Source of the DNA: Armatimonadota bacterium
Lineage (GTDB): Bacteria > Armatimonadota > UBA5829 > DTJY01
NCBI GenBank assembly: GCA_025358205.1
Contig: JANYKG010000119.1
Coordinates: 14,233-78,232, forward strand
Direction: 5' to 3'
Length of the DNA stretch: 64,000 nt
The position numbers and the translations under genes are program-made. This document shows positions 8,816-61,624 of the stretch, one piece after another; position 1 is the stretch's first letter, and each line of letters begins with the position of its first letter. The notes under the pieces were generated by a model. It was not told the origin of the DNA. It saw only the letters and a list, made by a program, of their open reading frames with translations, and searched no databases.

Positions 8816-9951
8816 TGTCCGTCTCCTTTGACGATTTGTGCTGCCGCCTTCATTGCGGCGCATGAGAGTAGTTCGGATGCACGGGCGAAGGCCTCGATCA
8901 GCGGTATCGGCTCGGTGACTATCGGCAGCACCGCCACTGCGCCGTGGTTGAGGAGTTCGCGCCCATCGGGTTCGACGCTTCCGGCCAGCGCAAGGACCGG
9001 CACCTCCGCTGATCTCGCCGCGCGAAGCACCCCGTTGATGGTCTTGCCCTGAAGGGTCTGCGCGTCTATCTTGCCCTCGCCTGTGATGACCAGCGATGCG
9101 CCGTTCAAGTGGTCGGCGAAGTGTGTGGCGTCCAGAACGATCTCGATGCCGGACTTCAGACCTGCCCCAAGGAACGCGACCGAGGCCGCACCCAGTCCGC
9201 CCGCCGCGCCCGCACCTGGTAGAAGCTCCACGTCAACGCCGAGGTCTCGCCGAATCACCTCAGCCAGGTTGTGCAGCCCGGCGTCAAGCCCCGCGACCAT
9301 CTGCGGACTCGCGCCCTTCTGCGGGCCGAAAACGGCGGATGCGCCTCGTGCGCCGGTGAGCGGGTTGTCCACATCGCAGGCAACGACGATCTCTGTCTCG
9401 CCGATTCTGGTGTCAAGATTGGAAAGGTCTATCGAGCGGATTCGGGCAAGTTCTCCGCCGCCGAAGCCGACCTCGTTGCCGTCCGTGTCCGTGAAACTTC
9501 CGCCCAGCGCCTGTGCCGCCCCTACTCCGCCGTCGTTGGTCGCACTTCCGCCGATGCCCAAGATCAGCTTCCGGCAGCCGGAGTCGAGTGCGGCTTTGAT
9601 TAACTCGCCTGTTCCGTAGGTGGTTGTGCGCATGGGGTTCCTGAGGTCGTCAGGTACGAGCGGCAGGCCGGACGCAGCGGCCATCTCAACAACCGCAGTC
9701 TCACCGTCGCCCAGGATGCCGAAGAAGGATTCGATCTTGTTTCCGAGCGGATCGGTCGCCTCAGCCGGAACGACACGCCCACCGGTCGCCTTCACCAGCG
9801 CCTCGACCGTGCCCTCACCGCCATCCGCCAGCGGGATGAGCGCCAACTCGGCATCGGGCAGTGCGCGGCGCACCCCGGCGGCGATGGACTCCGCGGCCTG
9901 AGTCGCAGTTAGACTGCCCTTGAAAGAATCCGGTGCGATGATGATTTTCAT
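8812..9951 (-). CDS. glxK: glycerate kinase
   Basis: 379 aa. MKIIIAPDSFKGSLTA...ADGGEGTVEAL is the classic GarK/GlxK N-terminus. Its start overlaps the iolB stop by 4 nt. Confidence 0.85.
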   Translation of the reverse strand: MKIIIAPDSFKGSLTATQAAESIAAGVRRALPDAELALIPLADGGEGTVEALVKATGGRVVPAEATDPLGNKIESFFGILGDGETAVVEMAAASGLPLVPDDLRNPMRTTTYGTGELIKAALDSGCRKLILGIGGSATNDGGVGAAQALGGSFTDTDGNEVGFGGGELARIRSIDLSNLDTRIGETEIVVACDVDNPLTGARGASAVFGPQKGASPQMVAGLDAGLHNLAEVIRRDLGVDVELLPGAGAAGGLGAASVAFLGAGLKSGIEIVLDATHFADHLNGASLVITGEGKIDAQTLQGKTINGVLRAARSAEVPVLALAGSVEPDGRELLNHGAVAVLPIVTEPIPLIEAFARASELLSCAAMKAAAQIVKGDGQ

Positions 9952-10697
9952 GCCGGTGTGTGGTGTATGCGCGGCGGATACACCTCTCCCGCGAGGACGC
10001 TGGTGCAGTACACAGTGCTGCCGGGCGATGCGCCGATGACGTGATAGCCCCTGGGTATCACCACCGTGTCGCCGTCAGCCACCTCGTAGGATTCGTTCAT
10101 CGGGCACGGGTCGGTTGCTCCCGTGTACACATGTACCAGTCCAAACCCTTGAGCAGAAGTGACACGGAAATGGCAGATTTCTTCGTGAGGAAACTCGGTA
10201 GACGGGTTGAATGCATCATGTTTGTGGGGAACCTTCTCGCCGTCCGTGGAAATGATGGCATGTGTGACGATCAGCCTGCAGCCTGTCAGCGTGCCGTCCG
10301 CCGGGCCGAATATACCCGGACTGCCGGAGCATTCCACCTTCGCCGAAGCTTCGGCGGACAAGCCAACCGGTGCGGAGAACATGCCGATCTCGACCGGGCA
10401 ATGCGTAGTGCGTATTGCGTACTGCGTGTTTGGGGGAAGGATAAAGATCGGTCGGCTCTCGCTCAGGCTCATCGGCGGAATGCCGTCTATCTCCAAGTCA
10501 GCCGTTCCTGAGTATACGACCAGCGCCTGCTCGCACTTACTTGTCTTGCCCGACCACTCACCGGAGGACAGGCGAAGCAGGCCGAACTCCAGATGCCGCA
10601 GACCCATCTCTCCGCGCCTTACGACCTTGGAGTAGCCCTTGCGCCGCACCCCGGCTCTTATCAGCAGGTTTTCCTTGCACTCCCTTATGCCGCTCAT
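9948..10697 (-). CDS. iolB: 5-deoxy-glucuronate isomerase (IolB, cupin)
   Basis: 249 aa. The C-terminal block PHKHD...GQGFGLVHVYT...VVIPRGYHVIGASPGSTVYCTSVLAG aligns by eye with B. subtilis IolB (PPHKHD...QGFVFQRVYT...VIVPAGYHPVG...YYLNVMAG). Confidence 0.7.
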   Translation of the reverse strand: MSGIRECKENLLIRAGVRRKGYSKVVRRGEMGLRHLEFGLLRLSSGEWSGKTSKCEQALVVYSGTADLEIDGIPPMSLSESRPIFILPPNTQYAIRTTHCPVEIGMFSAPVGLSAEASAKVECSGSPGIFGPADGTLTGCRLIVTHAIISTDGEKVPHKHDAFNPSTEFPHEEICHFRVTSAQGFGLVHVYTGATDPCPMNESYEVADGDTVVIPRGYHVIGASPGSTVYCTSVLAGEVYPPRIHHTPA

Positions 10698-17764: not shown

Positions 17765-17992
17765 CGAGTGATACGTGAGCTGGGTCCGGTAGCTTCCCTT
17801 CCGACTTGGATGTTGGAAGTTCGACGTTGGTCCGCTGCGGCGGATCGATGTTCGTTTCTGCCGCTCCCATACTCCCATACTGCATTCTTGCAGGAACTCC
17901 TCACCATTCGGCGGAATAGTAAGCAGTCGTAAGTGGCGTTAGGGCAGTGATCTGCGCCCGGTGGAGCGCCTTCTTCGCACGAGGAGCAATCT

Positions 17993-18913
17993 GTGAAACA
18001 GAGAACCCGCATTGCCGTAGCGATTATGATCGGCTTGTACTCCTGGAATTTCTTCGCCGCATTGGCCTCTGTGCTCATGGAGAAGAGCCGTGGGACTCTT
18101 TTCGAGACAGCGGAGTTTGCGTTCGGTGCTATCCTCGGCGCGCTTCTCAATGCTGCCATTGTCATCGGCTGCATCTACCTGCTTAAGAACCGCAGATGGG
18201 CCTGGACCATGCTCGTCTGGCTGACGGCCGCCTTCACCTTAGGTATGCTGAGCACGGGTCTGTCAATGGTAACGGATATGACTTGGGGATCGTCTACAGA
18301 AGTCGGCTCAACCTTATTCCCCTGGCTCATGGTATTCCTGCCGATCCCCTTCGGTTGGGTAAGTATCCCAGCGCTTATCATTCTGCTCACCGATAAGCCG
18401 GTGGGGTGGAGAAAGCCCAAAGTCATACCTGTTTCTTCAACCCAGGTTCCCGGCGATCTTAAGCGGCGAACACGTGTGATCGCTTGGATATATCTCGTTG
18501 TGTCAGGCATGAGATTCTTCAGCCTGCCACTCTATATGGTCATGTTCAGAGATAAGCCCGGGTCATGGCTGTCCGGCTTACCGGAAGCCTTTCTTTGGGT
18601 GCTTTGGCTAGGACTAATGCAGAAGCGTATCTGGTCATGGTGGAGTTTGGTTGCAACATACGCCGGTTTGTCAATGTGGTATGTTTGGAGTATCGCACAT
18701 GCGCCCGCGTATTATGCCGCCCATCACAAGGTCGTCGCGCAGCCGTGGCATGCGATGCTCCCCGGCGCCGTAACGCTCATCCTGATGCTACTGATTCCCC
18801 TCTGGGCGCTGCTCACCGATAGACCATCCGGCTGGACCATTCCACCATCCTCTGCCGCCAAGGCTTCGGCGGACAAGTCCGAAATCCGAAATCCGCGATC
18901 CGAAATGAGGTAG
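17993..18913 (+). CDS. polytopic membrane protein, hypothetical
   Basis: 306 aa with multiple TM helices. The C-terminal tail SADKSEIRNPRSEMR is encoded by a [GAAATCC]n heptamer array. Confidence 0.5.
   Translation: MKQRTRIAVAIMIGLYSWNFFAALASVLMEKSRGTLFETAEFAFGAILGALLNAAIVIGCIYLLKNRRWAWTMLVWLTAAFTLGMLSTGLSMVTDMTWGSSTEVGSTLFPWLMVFLPIPFGWVSIPALIILLTDKPVGWRKPKVIPVSSTQVPGDLKRRTRVIAWIYLVVSGMRFFSLPLYMVMFRDKPGSWLSGLPEAFLWVLWLGLMQKRIWSWWSLVATYAGLSMWYVWSIAHAPAYYAAHHKVVAQPWHAMLPGAVTLILMLLIPLWALLTDRPSGWTIPPSSAAKASADKSEIRNPRSEMR
18878..18908. repeat. heptamer array [GAAATCC]x4
   Basis: tccgaaatccgaaatccgcgatccgaaatga, at the 3' end of membrane protein gene 17993-18913. Confidence 0.85.
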
Positions 18914-21195: not shown

Positions 21196-23940
21196 TCATT
21201 TCTGTGCCGGTTCCGTGTAAGGTCCGGCTATCACCAGCGTGTACTTGTTCGGCCGCAGATATTTCTTCGCGGCGGCATTCACCTGCGCGAGCGTGACTCC
21301 TCTGTAAAGCGACTGGTATTTCCTGATGTAATCCATGCCCAGCCCGTAGAACTCCGCGCCGTGCAAGGTCTGCGCTATGGACGCGTTGTCCACAAGCCGC
21401 CTGGCCGGGAACGACCCCGCAATGTAGTCCACCGCGCGCTGCACCTGATCCGCTGTCTCACCATTGTCGCGAATCTTGGCAACCTCGTCCTTCAGTGCCT
21501 TGATGGCTTTGTCCACGTTCTTCGCATTTGTGCCCAGGTAGGCATACCACGCGCCGGCGCCGAGTCCCGCGTCGAAAGTGGTATAGACGTTGTAGACCAG
21601 ACCCATTTCGTCGCGTATCTTATATCCGAGCTGGCTGCCAAGCGCACCACCGCCGCCCAGAGAGTAGTTCATGATGGTCGCCGCGTAGAAATCGGGGTCG
21701 GATCGCTTGAGCTGACCGGCATAACCAAGCAGCACGCTGACCTGGGACTTATCCGGCATGGGGATGACCTTTTTCACATCTTCTGTCTGAACCGGAACAG
21801 TGGATATCTGCGGTCGTGTGGCTGGTCCCGTCGGCTGCCATTCGCCGAAGCGCTGCTTCACCCCTGCAACGGCGGCTTGCGGGTCTACGTCGCCTACTAT
21901 CACAAGGATAGCGGTTTGCGGGCCGTAGTGCGCCTTGTAGAAGGCAAGAACGTCATCCCTGGTGACGGCCTTGGTATCGGCGGTCTCTTCATCCAGGGTT
22001 AGCGCATGCAGCGGGTGGCCTTTGGGGAAGACCGCGCCTGAGAACGCGCGGAAAGCCATGGCGTCAGGGTCATCCTGCTCTTGCTTGATGCCGGAGAGCC
22101 TGCGCGCCGTCAGCTTGTCGAACTCGGTCTGCGGGAAGTTGGGGTTCCGCAGGGTGTCGGCCAGGATGTCCAGCAGCAGGTCGAAGTGCTTTGATAGAGA
22201 GCGTCCTGAGAACGAGGCGGACTCCGTGTCCGCGCTCGCCCCGATGCTCATGCCCACGAAGTCTTTCTCCTGCGCGATCTGGTCGGCTGTTCGCTTGGTG
22301 GTGCCTTTCTGCAGGAGTCCGGCGGTGATCTGCGCGAGACCGCTCTTGCCCTCGGGATCGAGAAGGCCGCCTGCGTTGAGGCTGCCCTGAATGGCCACGG
22401 TGGGGTTGCTTCTGTTCGGGTAGACGATCACCACCAGGCCGTTGTCGAGAACAACGCGGGTAGGCGCCACTAATTTCGGATTTCGGATTTCGGATTTCGG
22501 ATTTGTCCGGAGTTTGGAGTCTGGAACTTGGAATTTGGAACTTGGAGCTTGCAGGCTGTCCCGCTTGTACGCACAGTACCTGTTCCCATCCCACTGTTCA
22601 CTGTTCACTGATAACTGTTCACTGGTGCGCTGCTTCACCTCCGGCACGAAAGTCACCACATTCATATTCTTCTCGGTCAGGTACTTCTGCGCCACCCGCT
22701 GGATGTCCGCTTTGGTCACCTTACGCACGTTCGCGAGATATGTGTCCAGGAACCGCCATGACTTGATGGTCTCGAAGTAGCCCAACTGCTCAGCCTGATC
22801 CGTCACGCTGTCGTTCCCATAGATGAACGAGGACTCCAACTGGTTCACCGATTTCTGAAGCTCCTGGTCGGTGATCGGCTCGGATTTGATCTTCTCAATC
22901 TCGGCCAGCATCGCCGTCTGCACGTCCGCCAACTTCACGCCGTCCCGCGCCGTCGCACCCAACAGGAAAAGGTCGGGGTCGCGGTTGGTGGTCGAGGACG
23001 CATATTCAGAGGTGACGAGCTGGGTATCTACCAGTTCCTTGTACAGACGACTGCTCGCCCCGCTGTCAAGAACCATCTGAATGATATCGAGCGCGTATGA
23101 GTCAGGGGCGCCTATCGCCGGAGTGTGGTAGCCGATAAGTAGCCTATCTGCCGCGCCGGCTTTGGTTATCACCGATTCCTGCTTGCCGAATTGCGCCGCT
23201 TCAACTGAGGTTACCTTCGGAGGCGTCGGACCCTTTGGTATCTTGCCAAAATACTTGTTCACAAGCGCTAACGCCTTATTGGTATCGAAGTCGCCTACTA
23301 TCACCATCGTGGCGTTGCTCGGCCCGTAGTTCGATTTGTAATACTTGTAGAGGTCGTCGCGAGTCAGGCTGCGAACATCGTTGCTCCAGCCGATTGTGGG
23401 CCAGTGGTAAGGATGCTCCTTGAATGCCAGCGCGTACATCTGGTAGTACATCAGGCGGTCGGGGTCGTTCTCATCGCCCTCCAGTTCGGAGAGCACCACG
23501 GTTTGCTCGGACTTGAACTCCTTGGCGTCAATCACGCTGTTCACCATGCGGTCCGCCTCGATCTTCATGGCCAGTTCCAGGTTGTCGCTGGAGAGCGCCT
23601 CCCAGTAGTACGTCCAGTCCTTCCAGGTGGCCGCGTTGATGATGCCGCCCTTCTGCTGGATGAGCCTGTCTATGTCGCCCTTTTTGAGCGTCTTGGTGCC
23701 CTTGAACTGCATGTGTTCCAGCAGGTGAGACATGCCGGTCTTGCCGAACGGTTCGTTCCGCGAGCCGACCTTGTACCAGACGTTGAAAGCCACCACCGGC
23801 GCGGCATGGACTTCCTTGGTCAGCACCTTCAACCCGTTCGGCAGGACGGTCTCCTTGACCAGTGCATCGGCGCCGAAAGCAGACTGTGCGATGAGTAAGA
23901 TGACCCAGATGATAGTCAACCGAAAAGCTCGTGTTCTCAC
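21196..23940 (-). CDS. fused two-module M16 (pitrilysin/PqqL-like) zinc peptidase
   Basis: 914 aa. Signal peptide; inverzincin motif HLLEHMQFKGT in module 1; module 2 lacks HxxEH. The inter-module linker (SSKFQVPDSKLRTNPKSEIRNPK) is encoded by the heptamer repeat arrays at 22473-22552. GTG start. Confidence 0.8.
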   Translation of the reverse strand: MRTRAFRLTIIWVILLIAQSAFGADALVKETVLPNGLKVLTKEVHAAPVVAFNVWYKVGSRNEPFGKTGMSHLLEHMQFKGTKTLKKGDIDRLIQQKGGIINAATWKDWTYYWEALSSDNLELAMKIEADRMVNSVIDAKEFKSEQTVVLSELEGDENDPDRLMYYQMYALAFKEHPYHWPTIGWSNDVRSLTRDDLYKYYKSNYGPSNATMVIVGDFDTNKALALVNKYFGKIPKGPTPPKVTSVEAAQFGKQESVITKAGAADRLLIGYHTPAIGAPDSYALDIIQMVLDSGASSRLYKELVDTQLVTSEYASSTTNRDPDLFLLGATARDGVKLADVQTAMLAEIEKIKSEPITDQELQKSVNQLESSFIYGNDSVTDQAEQLGYFETIKSWRFLDTYLANVRKVTKADIQRVAQKYLTEKNMNVVTFVPEVKQRTSEQLSVNSEQWDGNRYCAYKRDSLQAPSSKFQVPDSKLRTNPKSEIRNPKLVAPTRVVLDNGLVVIVYPNRSNPTVAIQGSLNAGGLLDPEGKSGLAQITAGLLQKGTTKRTADQIAQEKDFVGMSIGASADTESASFSGRSLSKHFDLLLDILADTLRNPNFPQTEFDKLTARRLSGIKQEQDDPDAMAFRAFSGAVFPKGHPLHALTLDEETADTKAVTRDDVLAFYKAHYGPQTAILVIVGDVDPQAAVAGVKQRFGEWQPTGPATRPQISTVPVQTEDVKKVIPMPDKSQVSVLLGYAGQLKRSDPDFYAATIMNYSLGGGGALGSQLGYKIRDEMGLVYNVYTTFDAGLGAGAWYAYLGTNAKNVDKAIKALKDEVAKIRDNGETADQVQRAVDYIAGSFPARRLVDNASIAQTLHGAEFYGLGMDYIRKYQSLYRGVTLAQVNAAAKKYLRPNKYTLVIAGPYTEPAQK
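22473..22552. repeat. heptanucleotide tandem arrays: [ATTTCGG]x4 followed by [ARYTTGG]x6 (reverse complements GAAATCC / TTCCAAN)
   Basis: Seen directly; in frame within the M16 peptidase linker. Confidence 0.85.
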
Positions 23941-40122: not shown

Positions 40123-40153
40123 GATATCGGCAGTCTAGCACATCCTAGGGAAA

Positions 40154-40190
40154 ACTTCCAACATTCAACTTCCAACCTCCAACATCGAAG
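40154..40190. repeat. heptamer array [TTCCAAC]x5 (cttccaacattcaacttccaacctccaacatcgaa)
   Basis: Seen directly; intergenic, upstream of the 40282 start. Confidence 0.85.
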
Positions 40191-52184: not shown

Positions 52185-53534
52185 ATGACTGTTGCTACCA
52201 GAGCGCTGATAATCTGTCTGATCGTGTTGTGCGCGTCCGCATTCGCGGCTGAGGCCGTCGCGCCTTCGGACGTGAAGGTGACGGCGGAGGGCTTTGCAGC
52301 GTGTCCATCGGGCGCGGACAAGTCATCGTGCCGACACGCCGCGCTGGCGGATGCACTGAGACGCGCGGTGGAGAACGCGGTCGGCGTGACGGTGGAAGGC
52401 CAGACCCGCATCAAGAACTTCATGTCAGCGGAGGACACGGTGCGCATGAGTTCGGAAGGTTTCGTCCGCGATTACGCGATTGTGGGTGAGGGACTTGCGG
52501 ACGGCATGTACCGCGTGAAGATTGATGCCGTCGTCGCGCCGGGTAAGCCCGCGGATTCGCTCAAGCGCGCGTGTACCAAGCTGCGTGACGGTCCCAACCC
52601 CAAGTTCGGCGTGGAGATCGAGGGCCTGGCTGGAACCAAGATATCGAACGAACTGGCGGCTCTCGGTCTGACTGTCACCACAAAGAAGCCTTCAATCATC
52701 ATCAAAGGGTCGGTCAGTACATCACCGGCAGGCGAGCGGTTTGGCGAGATGATCTTCTACGCATACGGCGGGTCTACTGAGTTCTCCGTGGTGGAGTCAA
52801 AATCCGGCATGGTCATCCCGTCGGTTGACGTTACTCTCGCACAGCCGATACCCGGTGACAGCAACGACGAGTCCAAGAGCGGCGCCGTGCGGGCGGTATG
52901 CTCCCAGTGGATCGAGCGCAACATACCAATCATCGCAAGCGCGCTGCTTGACCCCGGTGAGCCTGTGGATATCCCCGCCGATACTCACATATCCTCCGAG
53001 GCTATCGAGTTCACGAGCGATCCATCGGCCTCGAACCTGATTCCCTCGGTGGGCGAACGGCTCATCCTAAAGGCCGAGGATATCTCCGCACTGGCTGCCA
53101 AGCTGAAGACCGCGGTTGATGCTTCTCAGGAGTTCGGAACGAAGCCGGTGGACATAGCTGTTTCGCGGTTCAAGGGGATCGGCATATCCAACCCGGCCTC
53201 AGTGGAGGACGTGCTGGAGGATTTAGGCACCGCGCTGGTGAAAACCGGAGTGTTTCGACTTGTGGAACGAACGCAGCTTGACCAGGTGCTTCGCGAGTTG
53301 AAGATACAGAGTTCCGCGCTTGTGGACAGCGCGACTGCCAAGAAGCTCGGCAAGCTGGTCGGCGCGCGGGCGGTGCTGGTCGGCAGCATTTCCGACCGCA
53401 AGGACTGCGTGGTTATCAACGCCAGGCTGATCAACACCGAAACCGGGTTGGTGGGCATTGCGGAAAGCATTGTGATAGACAAAGAGACTGAGCCGAAACC
53501 GAGAATCCTTCGCGCCGGTCCAGGGGGACTCTAA
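52185..53534 (+). CDS. secreted two-domain protein: LPP20/FlgP-like N-terminal domain plus CsgG/LpoB-fold C-terminal domain
   Basis: Signal peptide. LRRAVENAVGVTVEGQTRIKNFMSAEDTVRM fits the LPP20 pattern. The C-terminal LVERTQLDQVLRELKIQSSALVD...GKLVGARAVLVGSIS fits the CsgG-family pattern. Confidence 0.5.
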   Translation: MTVATRALIICLIVLCASAFAAEAVAPSDVKVTAEGFAACPSGADKSSCRHAALADALRRAVENAVGVTVEGQTRIKNFMSAEDTVRMSSEGFVRDYAIVGEGLADGMYRVKIDAVVAPGKPADSLKRACTKLRDGPNPKFGVEIEGLAGTKISNELAALGLTVTTKKPSIIIKGSVSTSPAGERFGEMIFYAYGGSTEFSVVESKSGMVIPSVDVTLAQPIPGDSNDESKSGAVRAVCSQWIERNIPIIASALLDPGEPVDIPADTHISSEAIEFTSDPSASNLIPSVGERLILKAEDISALAAKLKTAVDASQEFGTKPVDIAVSRFKGIGISNPASVEDVLEDLGTALVKTGVFRLVERTQLDQVLRELKIQSSALVDSATAKKLGKLVGARAVLVGSISDRKDCVVINARLINTETGLVGIAESIVIDKETEPKPRILRAGPGGL

Positions 53535-53575
53535 TGTTGAATGTTGAATGTTGGACGTTGAGTGTTGGACGTTCC
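53534..53575. repeat. heptamer array [RYGTTGR]x6 (reverse complement TTCCAAC family)
   Basis: atgttgaatgttgaatgttggacgttgagtgttggacg. Confidence 0.85.
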
Positions 53576-60037: not shown

Positions 60038-60259
60038 ATGCATCAGGTAACAATCGGTGATAAGTACCAGGTGACTATCCCGAAGGAGATTCGGGAGAAG
60101 CTGGGTATCAAGCCGGGACAGAGAGTTCTGGTGACTGCGTCAGGCGGCGGCATCACGATTCAGCCCGAACCCGGCGGCGGATCCGATGACCGGTTGACCC
60201 AGATCACTCATCACGTATCACGCAGCCCTGACACCTGGAACCGGACACCCGGAACCTGA
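60038..60259 (+). CDS. AbrB/MazE/SpoVT-family swapped-hairpin DNA-binding protein (antitoxin-like), orphan
   Basis: MHQVTIGDKYQVTIPKEIREKLGIKPGQRVLV is the classic looped-hinge-helix pattern. The ATG at 60038 gives about 74 aa. Confidence 0.6.
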   Translation: MHQVTIGDKYQVTIPKEIREKLGIKPGQRVLVTASGGGITIQPEPGGGSDDRLTQITHHVSRSPDTWNRTPGT

Positions 60260-60260
60260 A

Positions 60261-60303
60261 GAGAGTACGAGTAAGAGTACGAGTAGGAGTAAGAGTACGA
60301 GGG
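60261..60303. repeat. hexamer tandem repeat [GAGTAM]n (gagagtacgagtaagagtacgagtaggagtaagagtacgagg)
   Basis: Seen directly, between the abrB-like gene and hydF. Confidence 0.8.
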
Positions 60304-60316
60304 GTACAGGCAAGAC

Positions 60317-61624
60317 ATGGGAATGAATCAGACGCCATCCGGGGAGCGGATGCATATATCCATATTCGGGCGGAGGAACTCGGGCAAGAGCAGCCTGATC
60401 AATGCGCTGACGGGCCAGAAGCTCGCCATCGTGTCAGACGTCGCCGGCACCACAACCGACCCGGTCGCGAAAGCGATGGAGATACTGCCGATTGGGCCGG
60501 TGGTTATCACCGATACCGCCGGGATTGACGACGTGGGGGCGCTCGGCGAGCTGCGGGTGGAGAAGACGCTGCGGGTACTGGAGAAGACCGACCTGGCCGT
60601 TCTCATCATCGAGGCAGGGAGCGAACCCGGCGAGTGGGACAACAAGCTCGCGGGCATGGTAAAGGAGCGCAAGCTCCCCATGCTGGTCGTCGAGAACAAG
60701 ATTGATCTGGTGCGGACACGTGATTTGAAATCTGAAATTCGAGATTTGAAATCCCAAGTCGGGACCTGGGCCGAAGCCCACGAACTGCCCTACGTCGCCG
60801 TTTCCGCCACGACCGGCGAGAACATCGAGGGCCTGAAGCAGTGCCTCATCACCAATGCGCCCGAGGGGTTCGCCGAGCCGACCATCATCGGCGACCTGAT
60901 CAACCCCGGCGACATCGTTGTCCTCGTCGTCCCCATAGACAAGGCCGCGCCGAAGGGACGGCTCATCCTCCCGCAGGTGATGACCCTCCGCGACGCGCTG
61001 GATAACGACGCATACTCGGTAGTCGTGAAAGAACGCGAGTTGAAGAACGCGCTGGAGAACCTGAAGAACAAGCCCAAGATCGTCATCACCGACTCACAGG
61101 CGTTCCTGAAGGTCGCTGCGGACACCCCGAAAGACATCTGGATGACCAGTTTCTCCATCCTCATGGCGCGGTACAAGGGCAACCTGGAGGAGTTCGTCGC
61201 GGGCGCTCGTGCCCTCAAGAACCTGAAGATCGGCGACAAGGTGCTCATCTCTGAGGGCTGTACGCACCATCGGCAGGGCGATGACATCGGCAAGGTGCAG
61301 ATTCCGCGGTGGCTGCGTCAGGCAGTCGGCGGTGAGCTGGAGTTCGGCTTCAGCTCGGGCATCGAGTTCCCGGACGACATCGCGAAGTACAACGTCATCA
61401 TCCACTGCGGCGCGTGTACACTCAACCGGCGCGAGGTGTGTTTCCGGCAGAAGTCGGCCAAGGACGCAGGTATCCCGATGACTAACTACGGCGTCACCCT
61501 GGCTTATGTACACGGCATACTGGACCGCGCACTCGATCCGTTCCCGTTGGCAAAGGCGCTGTGGGAAGAGTCACCGGATAAGCCCGTGAGACCGAAGCTC
61601 AAGATCCAGCGAACGAGTGGCTAG
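60317..61624 (+). CDS. hydF: [FeFe]-hydrogenase maturation GTPase HydF
   Basis: G1 GRRNSGKSS, G3 DTAG, G4 NKID. The C-terminal cluster motif CTHH...HCGAC and a long block alignment with Thermotoga HydF (PQVMTLRDALD...VVKERELK...ITDSQ...PMTNYGV). Confidence 0.85.
   Translation: MGMNQTPSGERMHISIFGRRNSGKSSLINALTGQKLAIVSDVAGTTTDPVAKAMEILPIGPVVITDTAGIDDVGALGELRVEKTLRVLEKTDLAVLIIEAGSEPGEWDNKLAGMVKERKLPMLVVENKIDLVRTRDLKSEIRDLKSQVGTWAEAHELPYVAVSATTGENIEGLKQCLITNAPEGFAEPTIIGDLINPGDIVVLVVPIDKAAPKGRLILPQVMTLRDALDNDAYSVVVKERELKNALENLKNKPKIVITDSQAFLKVAADTPKDIWMTSFSILMARYKGNLEEFVAGARALKNLKIGDKVLISEGCTHHRQGDDIGKVQIPRWLRQAVGGELEFGFSSGIEFPDDIAKYNVIIHCGACTLNRREVCFRQKSAKDAGIPMTNYGVTLAYVHGILDRALDPFPLAKALWEESPDKPVRPKLKIQRTSG
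60742..60775. repeat. heptamer array (gatttgaaatctgaaattcgagatttgaaatccc), GAAATCY family, in frame within hydF
   Basis: Encodes RDLKSEIRDLKSQ between the G4 and G5 motifs. Confidence 0.8.

Follow-up and report, generated by a model that had tools for sequence, protein, structure and literature searches.

How does a repeated unit of seven nucleotides, a length which is not a multiple of three, come to be read in frame inside a peptidase, a GTPase and a membrane protein, and is it the DNA or the peptide that is kept there? The question is raised by one stretch of 64,000 nucleotides, called the window hereafter, in which a preliminary description had proposed that the same DNA element was absorbed into unrelated proteins. 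The arrays are best read, with a probability of roughly 0.8, as heptanucleotide simple-sequence repeats (SSRs) of the cyanobacterial STRR/LSSR type, which would be tolerated only in permissive protein segments, and, judged from the sequence, it is the 7-nt unit that accounts for part of the M16 linker, the hydF insert and the membrane-protein tail. This kind of array is already known, the example is new and the occurrence is widespread. The features are collected in Table 1.

Table 1. Repeat arrays of the window and the genes in which they lie (positions are those of the window).
Feature	Position	Strand	Basis or reading
Possible extra case: KduI/IolB-like ORF 9948-10697	10272..10427	-	Candidate in-gene arrays
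Polytopic membrane protein, family unassigned by Pfam	17993..18913	+	ORF
C-terminal tail of the membrane protein, AKASADKSEIRNPRSEMR and stop	18857..18906	+	21-nt "head" GCCAAGGCTTCGGCGGACAAG, then (AARTCCG)-type array, ~4.5 units
Two-module (fused) M16 zinc peptidase gene, 914 aa	21196..23940	-	ORF and translation
Inter-module linker, aa 437-490	22471..22632	-	~55% repeat arrays; predicted disordered
Perfect (AAATCCG)4.6 = (ATTTCGG)4.6 on the forward strand, 32 nt	22473..22504	-	Read as NPKSEIRNPK
Degenerate (AGTTCCA)-type = (TGGAACT)-type array, ~6 units	22510..22551	-	Read as APSSKFQVPDSK; TRF periods 7 and 14
(AACAGTG)4.7 = (CACTGTT)4.7, one variant unit	22592..22624	-	Read as SEQLSVNSEQW
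(AATGTTG/GACGTTG) array	53533..53573	+	Spans the CsgG-like stop and the candidate ATG of the LPP20-like gene
MazE/AbrB-like gene, 73 aa	60038-60259	+	Gene call and PF04014 match on the identical Logan contig L015
Tail LTQITHHVSRSPDTWNRTPGT and stop of the MazE/AbrB-like gene	60201..60256	+	Encoded by (ATCACKY)3 and (GACACCYGGAACC)2 arrays; translation
hydF, [FeFe]-hydrogenase maturation GTPase	60317..61624	+	Pfam HydF_dimer, HydF_tetramer, MMR_HSR1
hydF insert between G4 (NKID) and G5 (VSA)	60719..60760	+	Read as RDLKSEI/RDLKSQV

The window holds seven period-7 arrays against a mean of 0.03 in 30 Markov-1 shuffles, and five period-14 arrays against none in the shuffles; AAATCCGAAATCCG occurs eight times with up to two mismatches, where 0.49 occurrences are expected and none of 100 shuffles reaches eight. 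As in STRR-type repeats, the 7-nt copies stand head to tail (by TRF and by our own scan, e.g., the perfect 4.6 units at 22473-22504), 12-13 of the 21 arrays lie outside ORFs, in 9% of the window, and unit families recur at dispersed loci: AAATCCG at three, ATCACTC at four, the CAACATT/AACTTCC type at two and the GACACC/GGAACC type at two. Families of the window's arrays were also found again in relatives, in the DNA of M16 linkers. In the KduI/IolB-like ORF there are period-7 arrays at 10272-10294 and 10402-10427 and a diverged copy of the head at 10342-10362, and its Pfam and PDB matches are confined to residues 154-239. The array at 40153-40183 was ruled out as coding; the true gene start there is the downstream MKTICAAAL signal peptide.

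The M16 peptidase matches PF00675 and PF05193 twice each, that is, it has two Peptidase_M16 plus M16_C modules, the first with and the second without the HxxEH motif, and its closest named homologues belong to Armatimonadota metagenome-assembled genomes (MAGs). The ORF is stop-free through three period-7 arrays and gives the peptide APSSKFQVPDSKLRTNPKSEIRNPKLVAP, preceded by RTSEQLSVNSEQW; the array had been described as an in-frame inter-module linker, and the translation bears this out, with the third array (22592-22624) lying beyond the part first described. In the AF2 model (mean pLDDT 88) residues 437-488 fall below 50 and are without secondary structure. The 120 M16 homologues listed are 845-996 aa long with a query coverage of 96-100% in most, including the 60 aligned; split-gene orthologues would rank below these 120 best matches and hence lie outside the sample. 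Across 61 orthologues the linker segment is hypervariable (56-116 residues) and its peptides fit several different repeat units, and an AYRP-like motif is conserved within it. The exact product had no match in the contig look-up, and a search of genome contigs gave one close match (L001), ending just before the linker, and nine distant ones, mostly from Bacteroidota.

DNA was compared for four M16 orthologues with 65-72% amino acid identity (L011, L012, L013 and L014), and their linkers carry near-perfect 7-nt and 8-nt tandem arrays. (AAATCCG)n stands at the 3' end of the linker in all five genes including that of the window, differing in purity and copy number, from about two intact units (degenerate, L013) through 4.6 in the window to about six (L012), and other repeat families lie further 5'. 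Of the linker families, (GTTCAAC/GTTCAAG)n in L011 and L012 is read as STFNVQRST and is the reverse complement of the family at the LPP20 site, and CAGTSAA differs between genomes in copy number, with 4.7 units in the window versus 11 in L013. A perfect AACAGTG unit would give an in-frame TGA, which is avoided by the variant unit at 22592-22624 in the window and by CAGTCAA variants in L013.

In hydF, the product of which matches PDB 5lad and 3qq5 with E ~1e-117, the peptide RDLKSEIRDLKSQ is located between NKID (G4) and VSA (G5). The insert had been correctly placed between these motifs; its position had been given as 60742-60775, and the true array begins about 20 nt upstream. Three degenerate AATCCGA-like units, duplicated in tandem as a 21-nt block which TRF missed, make up the insert, which gives HydF eight extra residues compared with the solved HydF structures and a segment of 49 aa versus 39 aa in baseline orthologues, which are without any insert. 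An orthologue with 81% identity (L016) carries a perfect (AAATCCG)4.7 at exactly the same site. HydF residues 137-143 have an AF2 pLDDT below 50 within an otherwise confident model. Furthermore, the baseline sequence GTG TCA GAA ATC GAG resembles the units which were expanded at the insert site in two relatives.

The membrane protein has no Pfam match, and five homologues were found. Its tail ADKSEIRNPRSEMR, followed by the stop codon, is encoded by the array at 18875-18906, as had been proposed, and an array-derived tail is common to four of the five homologues. Homologue tails such as NPQSEIRDPK and NPQSEIRIPQ come from the same array family in a frame that differs at the end, and the reading frame also differs between the window and L150. 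Moreover, the head plus the first units of the window's tail are identical over 33 nt to the M16 linker of another genome. With this tail and the hydF site of L016, the claim of one element in unrelated proteins holds. At the fourth site, where the first residues of the LPP20-like protein had been assigned to the repeat, the ORF does start within an array (53533-53573), with MLNVECWTLSVGRS at a candidate ATG, and the array would be read as MLNVECWTLSVGR if that ATG at 53534 is used. The candidate ATG overlaps the upstream stop (TAATG) and has GGGGGA 5 nt upstream, and the best homologue begins about 12 residues later, so the start itself stays a candidate.

The predicted frameshift arithmetic was confirmed by simulation: changes of +/-7 or +/-14 nt truncate M16 at aa 443-626 and HydF at aa 142, and +/-21 nt are harmless. 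Length steps among orthologues were also to be looked for, and a 21-nt step is seen in the hydF insert only. Frameshifted alleles, which were likewise to be looked for, and copy-number-variant ones were not seen in contigs with identical flanks or in L015, a Logan contig (SRR22198308) which is 100% identical to the window over hydF and consequently adds no population variation.

The unit is by no means restricted to this window. (AAATCCG) in at least four copies was found in at least 120 metagenome contigs with a GC of 0.30-0.70, and in a viral collection there were only 10 array matches. In-frame arrays lie within Pfam-verified genes for GatA, PNPase, LeuRS, an ATP-dependent DNA ligase, a 5'-3' exonuclease (Pol I exonuclease), a ROK kinase, DnaX, and DnaE-like and class-V aminotransferase proteins; in the DNA ligase, as in the KduI-like ORF, the Pfam match leaves the array region uncovered. 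Among arrays with an open frame of at least 300 nt on both sides, the frame is kept in 21 of 23 in the KSEIRNP orientation versus 6 of 11 in the hydrophobic one (ISDFGFR). The lengths of perfect tracts peak at 31-33 nt, for AAATCCG as well as for unselected other units in the same DNA; assembled arrays of 42, 57 and 69 nt exist, longer arrays interrupted by one base (31+24 nt) occur in L057, L077 and L110, and inverted pairs of arrays in L019, L021 and L032. Contigs with identical flanks from different samples have identical arrays with an identical copy number. Around 84 arrays no flank consensus, conserved ends, terminal inverted repeats or target-site duplication was found, and the 21-nt head is common to only a subset; without a flank consensus, the arrays are not a transposon-like unit of the MITE or REP type. 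A full-text literature search for the repeat or its peptides returned unrelated papers only.

Several other explanations have to be weighed against tolerated simple-sequence repeats. That the picture is an artefact, the M16 gene being in fact a pair of genes on either side of a non-coding repeat spacer or the arrays having been collapsed by assemblers, might be thought of since such arrays are typically intergenic, L001 ends just before the M16 linker and the 32-nt mode lies near widely used k-mer lengths, but its probability is next to negligible: all 61 aligned M16 orthologues keep one stop-free frame through linkers of 56-116 aa with the AYRP-like motif inside, and some assembled arrays reach 42, 57 and 69 nt. 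After collapse the frame would be random, and collapse was rejected as the source of the 32-nt mode because frames are kept (21/23) and the arrays are flanked on either side by Pfam matches, several of which run through them. A functional KSEIRNP-type peptide (e.g., for docking or cleavage), of which the nucleotide repeat would be a by-product, is most improbable, although similar peptides recur at the linker end of many M16 orthologues and in the membrane-protein tail and the strand bias is towards the KSEIRNP reading. Successive units are identical as DNA despite the different frame of each, the same arrays occur in non-coding spacers, the same protein site holds different repeat units in different lineages, the frame of the tail differs between the window and L150, and the regions are modelled as disordered. 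A peptide conserved without nucleotide repeats had been named as the refuting finding for a DNA element; the M16 linker DNA of the orthologues already largely refutes such a motif, as all four carry near-perfect arrays with (AAATCCG)n at the same end, and what is kept is thus a DNA repeat rather than a selected peptide. Phase variation, with non-triplet arrays as slippage-driven on/off switches of their host genes, is very unlikely. As the 7-nt unit within an ORF is not a triplet, slippage does shift the frame, a change of one or two units truncates M16 and HydF, and the -7-nt slip in M16 even ends at a TAG overlapping an in-frame GTG for module 2; however, the tract has only about 4.6 units and is not a long hypermutable tract in a surface or host-interaction gene, the hosts are housekeeping enzymes (PNPase, LeuRS, GatA and HydF), and the frame counts, the constant copy number between samples and the exact match of the SRR22198308 contig over hydF all speak against switching. 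No coexisting in-frame and out-of-frame alleles, nor any other sign of phase variation, were found at the level of assembled contigs.

An active or templated insertion deserves more attention. A dedicated mechanism would place tracts of one heptamer, about 32 nt long, at numerous sites, e.g., by templated synthesis at DNA breaks or by ectopic copying from other arrays, and the in-frame copies would be the survivors. The presence of AAATCCG in at least 120 contigs of such different GC, the 31-33 nt peak shared with unselected units, the identity of head plus array over 33 nt between unrelated genes from two genomes and the inverted array pairs are in its favour. On the other hand, the arrays are without conserved flanks, target duplications and terminal repeats, no associated gene was identified, the broken arrays of 31+24 nt are equally compatible with a stability limit for perfect tracts, and the hydF site has a local seed; we regard this mechanism as improbable. 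The recurrence of AAATCCG in contigs with a GC of 0.30-0.70 and the sharp peak of perfect tracts, in place of a smooth decay, nevertheless go beyond simple slippage and are unexplained by it, and the 33-nt identity between two genomes hints at a transfer of pre-formed segments. In its broader form, a class of dispersed micro-elements with a favoured length near 32 nt, which a templated or otherwise active process common to many lineages would deposit, is still rather unlikely.

Tolerated simple-sequence repeats would work as follows. A few 7-nt (and some 8-nt) units would recur throughout the genome and in relatives, chiefly in intergenic spacers, and replication slippage or template switching at short seeds is the probable source of new arrays and of changes in existing ones, a step which we infer because the baseline hydF sequence resembles the expanded units. 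An array could be fixed where part of a gene tolerates any hydrophilic unstructured peptide, whether between domains, in a surface loop or at either end of the protein, provided that the net length keeps the frame and no new stop codon arises; it would then be translated, three units giving seven residues, e.g., KSEIRNP. Selection would act on frame, absence of stops and strand, not on the peptide, with the hydrophilic reading preferred and variant units taking away in-frame TGA codons. At all three sites (M16 linker, hydF loop and membrane-protein tail) the DNA of orthologues retains near-perfect arrays, and in M16 and HydF the repeat-encoded segments coincide with unstructured stretches of low AF2 confidence, as in Borg proteins. 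Arrays would thus persist for long at orthologous sites while copy number and purity drift, and would be stable tolerated insertions making disordered segments, not on/off switches.

The excess of heptanucleotide SSRs in bacteria and its explanation by polymerase slippage have been described (PMC4679880, PMC4692102). As cited in PMC4692102, the cyanobacterial STRRs of Calothrix, Nostoc and Anabaena are short tandem arrays of 7-nt units, with several unit families per genome at many, mostly intergenic loci and an unexplained mechanism of spread, all of which applies here. Compared with that account, the hosts here are Armatimonadota and other uncultured lineages, the units are others (AAATCCG, AGTTCCA, AACAGTG, CAACATT, GAGTGAT, etc.) and arrays are documented in frame in conserved enzymes; as the homologues come from Armatimonadota MAGs and not from cyanobacteria, the repeats are called STRR-like rather than STRR proper. 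The long SSRs surveyed by Mrazek and co-workers in 2007, as relayed by the same sources (PMC4679880, PMC4692102), also over-represent period 7, with slippage proposed, and in-gene repeats there tend towards unit lengths that are multiples of three, whereas the present non-triplet unit has repeatedly been fixed in frame.

The TAACTGA repeats of marine Beggiatoaceae and cyanobacteria, with 2-6 copies per set, are likewise one heptamer in distant lineages and mainly intergenic; the authors expected such repeats to be tolerated at the ends of proteins or between their modules, and predicted a 7-aa repeat, LSVISYQ, in one orientation (PMC4679880). TAACTGA, however, has stop codons on one strand and its cases within ORFs are mostly hypothetical proteins (PMC4679880), whereas AAATCCG is stop-free on both strands and lies inside well-known housekeeping enzymes. 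The GGGAATC/GGGGAYT repeats of Xanthomonas and Nostoc, heptamer arrays of about four units (26-mers) and about 90% intergenic, also keep their position between related species with variable length and sequence, but they are G-rich and quadruplex-capable, unlike AAATCCG, and have been discussed as regulatory DNA or RNA, not as coding sequence (PMC4692102). The amino acid tandem repeats of Borgs resemble the present arrays as perfect nucleotide repeats in ORFs which yield disordered polar segments, with local seeds suggested and a strong selection on the reading frame (PMC9879509), although the present unit, of 7 nt, is used over again in many genes and genomes; only the 21-nt hydF duplication and a 9-nt repeat in L017 have the Borg-type unit divisible by three. 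Phase-variable SSR loci, e.g., of Haemophilus influenzae (PMC8262952, PMC2651432), share a non-triplet repeat whose slippage would alter expression, and differ from the low copy numbers, the housekeeping hosts and the lack of visible variant alleles here.

For genome analysis, such arrays add to the number and variety of "hypothetical" peptide tails in gene calls from metagenomes, may break contigs and can mislead alignments and domain searches. If the micro-element reading were true, such elements could land in essential genes as well, and conserved proteins could acquire new disordered loops and linkers from them time and again. For the organism itself the window offers a clean natural case of non-coding repeat DNA turning into protein sequence, against the usual expectation that only repeats of triplet-multiple length survive in genes, and it displays the constraints on survival, namely frame, absence of stops, the hydrophilic strand and a permissive site. 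From one 7-nt unit come a linker between domains, a surface loop of a GTPase and the C-terminal end of a membrane protein, and in other uncultured bacteria AAATCCG supplies loops in PNPase, LeuRS, GatA, DNA ligase and the Pol I exonuclease.

The period-7 signal in the window is not a product of chance. Seven period-7 arrays were found by our own scan against a mean of 0.03 in Markov-1 shuffles, and five period-14 arrays against a mean of 0; in addition, period 7 makes up 17 of the 37 TRF rows, and AAATCCGAAATCCG, with at most two mismatches, occurs 8 times where 0.49 are expected. The names of the closest homologues point to an uncultured member of the Armatimonadota as the source. The ORF map leaves 9% of the window uncovered, and 12 of the 21 arrays fall there; the array at 40153 joins them as intergenic if its gene is taken to begin at its true start. 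On the best-supported reading, the arrays belong to the STRR/LSSR type of heptanucleotide simple-sequence repeats, those within genes being tolerated only at permissive sites, provided that frame and stop constraints hold.

In the M16 peptidase, the ORF reads through all three arrays to give RTSEQLSVNSEQWDGNRYCAYKRDSLQAPSSKFQVPDSKLRTNPKSEIRNPKLVAP between two complete modules (PF00675 and PF05193 are each matched twice by Pfam), so the preliminary description was right to regard the heptamers as an in-frame inter-module linker. Perfect AACAGTG units are expected to bring an in-frame TGA; the variant units in translated arrays escape it, which marks selection in favour of read-through. In simulation, a change of ±7 or ±14 nt cuts M16 short at aa 443-626 and HydF at aa 142, and one of ±21 nt does no harm to either, as the frameshift arithmetic proposed earlier had it. 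Directly 3' of the M16 array is AAATTAGTGGCG; after a slip of -7 or +14 nt, module 1 would end at a TAG within it that overlaps the in-frame GTG of module 2 (TAGTG). The slipped gene would resemble a translationally coupled two-gene M16 pair, probably by coincidence.

Coordinates of the arrays and associated features (window positions unless a metagenome or orthologue locus is named)
Feature	Position	Strand	Remark
M16 peptidase ORF	21196-23940	minus	contains the stretch flagged in the preliminary description
(AAATCCG)4.6	22473-22504	minus	perfect; coding strand
AGTTCCA-type array	22510-22551	minus	degenerate, ~6 units
(AACAGTG)4.7	22592-22624	minus	third array, beyond the stretch first flagged
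AAATTAGTGGCG	22465-22475		3' of M16 array
hydF insert	60719-60739 + 60740-60760		21-nt tandem duplication, three degenerate AATCCGA-like units
Repeats upstream of hydF	60200-60316		(ATCACKY)3, (GACACCYGGAACC)2, (AGAGTA/CGAGTA) hexamer array of 6.7 units
MazE/AbrB-like tail arrays	60201-60256
KduI/IolB-like ORF	9948-10697	minus
21-nt head GCCAAGGCTTCGGCGGACAAG	18857-18877; 10342-10362; L013 1811-1831		translated as (F)AKASADK
Octamer array	17864-17881
Inverted (AAATCCG)>=4 pairs	L019 2292-2389; L021 9199-9315; L032 2135-2276		40-90 nt apart

In an alignment of 61 M16 orthologues (48-72% identity), the inter-module segment ranges from 56 to 116 residues and is full of peptides fitting differing short repeat units: KSEIRNP variants adjoining the start of module 2, STFNVQRST, three copies of EQSTVNS, SMGVWEYG, which fits an octamer unit, ESGVRSQ and GDAETRR. 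All four orthologue loci compared as DNA (L011-L014) carry near-perfect period-7 plus period-8 arrays in the linker, and (AAATCCG)n stands at the same linker 3' end in all five sequences (window, 4.6 units; L011, ~4.7; L012, ~6; L013, degenerate; L014, ~3.7). At the 5' end, the CAGTGAA/CAGTCAA family has 4.7 copies in the window versus 11 in L013, and (GTTCAAC/GTTCAAG)n, present in L011 and L012, matches the window array at 53533 in reverse complement. Consecutive units are identical as DNA though each falls in another reading frame, so conservation is at the nucleotide level; a peptide conserved apart from nucleotide repeats, which the preliminary description named as the finding that would speak against an invading repeat, is not what the linkers of L011-L014 hold. 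In the window and in the linkers of L012 and L011, the heptamers are joined by octamer arrays, (TATGGGAG)n and (GGCGAGTG)n, which translate to 8-aa repeats such as YGSMGVWE in several orthologue linkers.

The identity of hydF rests on Pfam and PDB matches. Its NKID-VSA segment is 8 residues longer than in solved HydF structures and, among 52 orthologues, measures 49 aa in the window against a baseline of 39 aa; the repeat insert claimed earlier is thus real, and it shows a 21-nt length step. An 81% identical hydF (L016) has a perfect (AAATCCG)4.7 at the same site, the hydF of L149 has ~4 units of a (GTCAGRA) array, and the hydF of another lineage (L017, P0124) a 9-nt repeat, (CSGATCRGT)4, encoding RIGPIGRISPIG. 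In this comparison the loop is a hotspot at which short repeats of different kinds recur. At the insert point GTG TCA GAA ATC GAG stands in a baseline orthologue (L148), and this seed-like sequence suggests local expansion or microhomology-primed copying. Nearly all of the 117 nt upstream of hydF is a short-repeat mosaic. AlphaFold2 models built from orthologue alignments are confident as a whole (mean pLDDT 88 for M16 and 79 for HydF) but lose confidence precisely at the inserts (M16 residues 437-488, HydF residues 137-143), both of which are coil; what the arrays encode, be it linker, loop or tail, is therefore predicted to be unstructured.

Other genes of the window also carry arrays. Four of five homologues of the membrane protein (49-58% identical) end in NPQSEI(R/P)xP(K/Q), encoded by the same array family as the window's tail, in agreement with the array-encoded tail first described. 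The frame of the final codons differs between homologue and window (TGA vs TAG stop), so at its extreme C-terminus a protein evidently sets no constraint on frame. For the LPP20-like protein, the array does span the upstream stop and a candidate ATG, which is favoured by a TAATG overlap and by GGGGGA 5 nt upstream; however, the best homologue begins ~12 residues later, so translation of the array there is only possible. A perfect AATGTTG array on that strand would bring a TGA every 21 nt. A further case is a 73-aa MazE/AbrB-like protein (gene call, identical Logan contig), whose array-encoded tail is formed by (ATCACKY)3 and the GACACCYGGAACC repeat. Absorption of one array element into unrelated proteins holds for the M16 linker, the hydF loop and the membrane-protein tail. 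The KduI/IolB-like ORF has Pfam and PDB matches at residues 154-239 only, and two period-7 arrays plus a copy of the 21-nt head supply its residues 90-145; a cupin protein may here have taken in repeats in frame. In the membrane-protein tail, as in another genome's M16 linker, the head comes before the AAATCCG array, and head and array are identical over 33 nt in these two unrelated genes of two genomes. The KduI-like ORF, L012, L024 and L033 contain diverged copies, and from these occurrences the head looks like a second dispersed element of small size.

Scanned for exact (AAATCCG)4, metagenome contigs gave at least 120 stretches, and among those listed GC ranges from 0.30 to 0.70. A flank consensus was sought around 84 arrays and none was found; only 10 viral contigs carry an array. 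Many of the listed matches fall within long ORFs, with Pfam-confirmed hosts including GatA-type amidase, PNPase, LeuRS, ATP-dependent DNA ligase, 5'-3' exonuclease, ROK kinase, class-V aminotransferase, DnaE-like, DnaX and TPR proteins, and in several of them the Pfam match continues through the array. Among arrays that have 300 nt or more of open frame on both sides, 21 of 23 read as KSEIRNP (hydrophilic) preserve the frame, versus 6 of 11 read as ISDFGFR (hydrophobic); this indicates that selection acts to keep the frame and that the hydrophilic strand is preferred. Arrays do not differ between contigs that share identical flanks but come from different samples; in a pair with ~89% identical flanks only substitutions differ, at the tract 3' end, giving perfect runs of 32 and 29 nt within regions equal in length and frame. 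In the related loci L025 and L090 (flanks ~89% identical) the gene starts ATG AAA TCG and continues into the array (MKSKIRNPKSEIRN...), a putative array-encoded N-terminus conserved between relatives. Both members of the inverted pair in L019 lie in one DnaE-like ORF and read KSEIRNPKSEI...SDFGFRISDF. In the flanks of L040, L042, L084, L024 and L086 the array forms the loop between the arms of an imperfect palindrome, GTAGCAGCCGACGTAAGGAGGCTCTG ... CAGAGCCTCCTTACGTCGGCTGCTAC, so heptamer arrays are in some contigs joined to a REP-like hairpin element.

The tracts inside genes have little length, they sit in housekeeping genes, and neither out-of-frame nor variant alleles, nor any other evidence of frameshift switching, was found in the identical-flank contigs, the in-frame survey or the Logan contig identical over hydF; phase variation thus has no support. 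Collapse of the arrays by the assembler is countered by frame conservation. Against each of the selected-peptide, mis-annotation and assembly-artefact readings there are specific contrary results.

Perfect AAATCCG tracts in the metagenome loci L018-L137 are most frequent at 31-33 nt (24, 46 and 17 arrays), with a drop to 6, 4 and 4 at 34-36 nt. Other, unselected heptamer units in the same DNA likewise show a second mode, at 31-34 nt, and hardly any longer tracts, longer arrays tend to have a one-base break, such as 31+24 nt (L057, L077, L110), and the window M16 array is exactly 32 nt. A stability cap could produce this peak if misaligned homology (L-7) reached the ~25 nt needed for recombination; a templated process depositing a fixed length could do so too. 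This peak, the sharing of one unit across lineages and the identical 33-nt head-plus-array leave room for a more novel mechanism, which we consider unlikely. For simple-sequence repeats, the bacterial excess of 7-nt units and its explanation by polymerase slippage are described in two reports (PMC4679880, PMC4692102).

The closest known kinds are the cyanobacterial STRRs, the GGGAATC-type heptamers of Xanthomonas and Nostoc (PMC4692102) and the TAACTGA repeats of Beggiatoaceae, whose authors had foreseen that such repeats would be tolerated between modules and at the ends of proteins (PMC4679880). Borg tandem repeats likewise make disordered regions in ORFs; however, unlike the arrays here, their within-ORF units are all divisible by three and nearly all unique (PMC9879509). 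A full-text literature search for the AAATCCG unit or its peptides gave nothing relevant. The heptanucleotide repeats are extended here to a new phylum, and their in-frame fixation inside conserved enzymes is unusually well documented.
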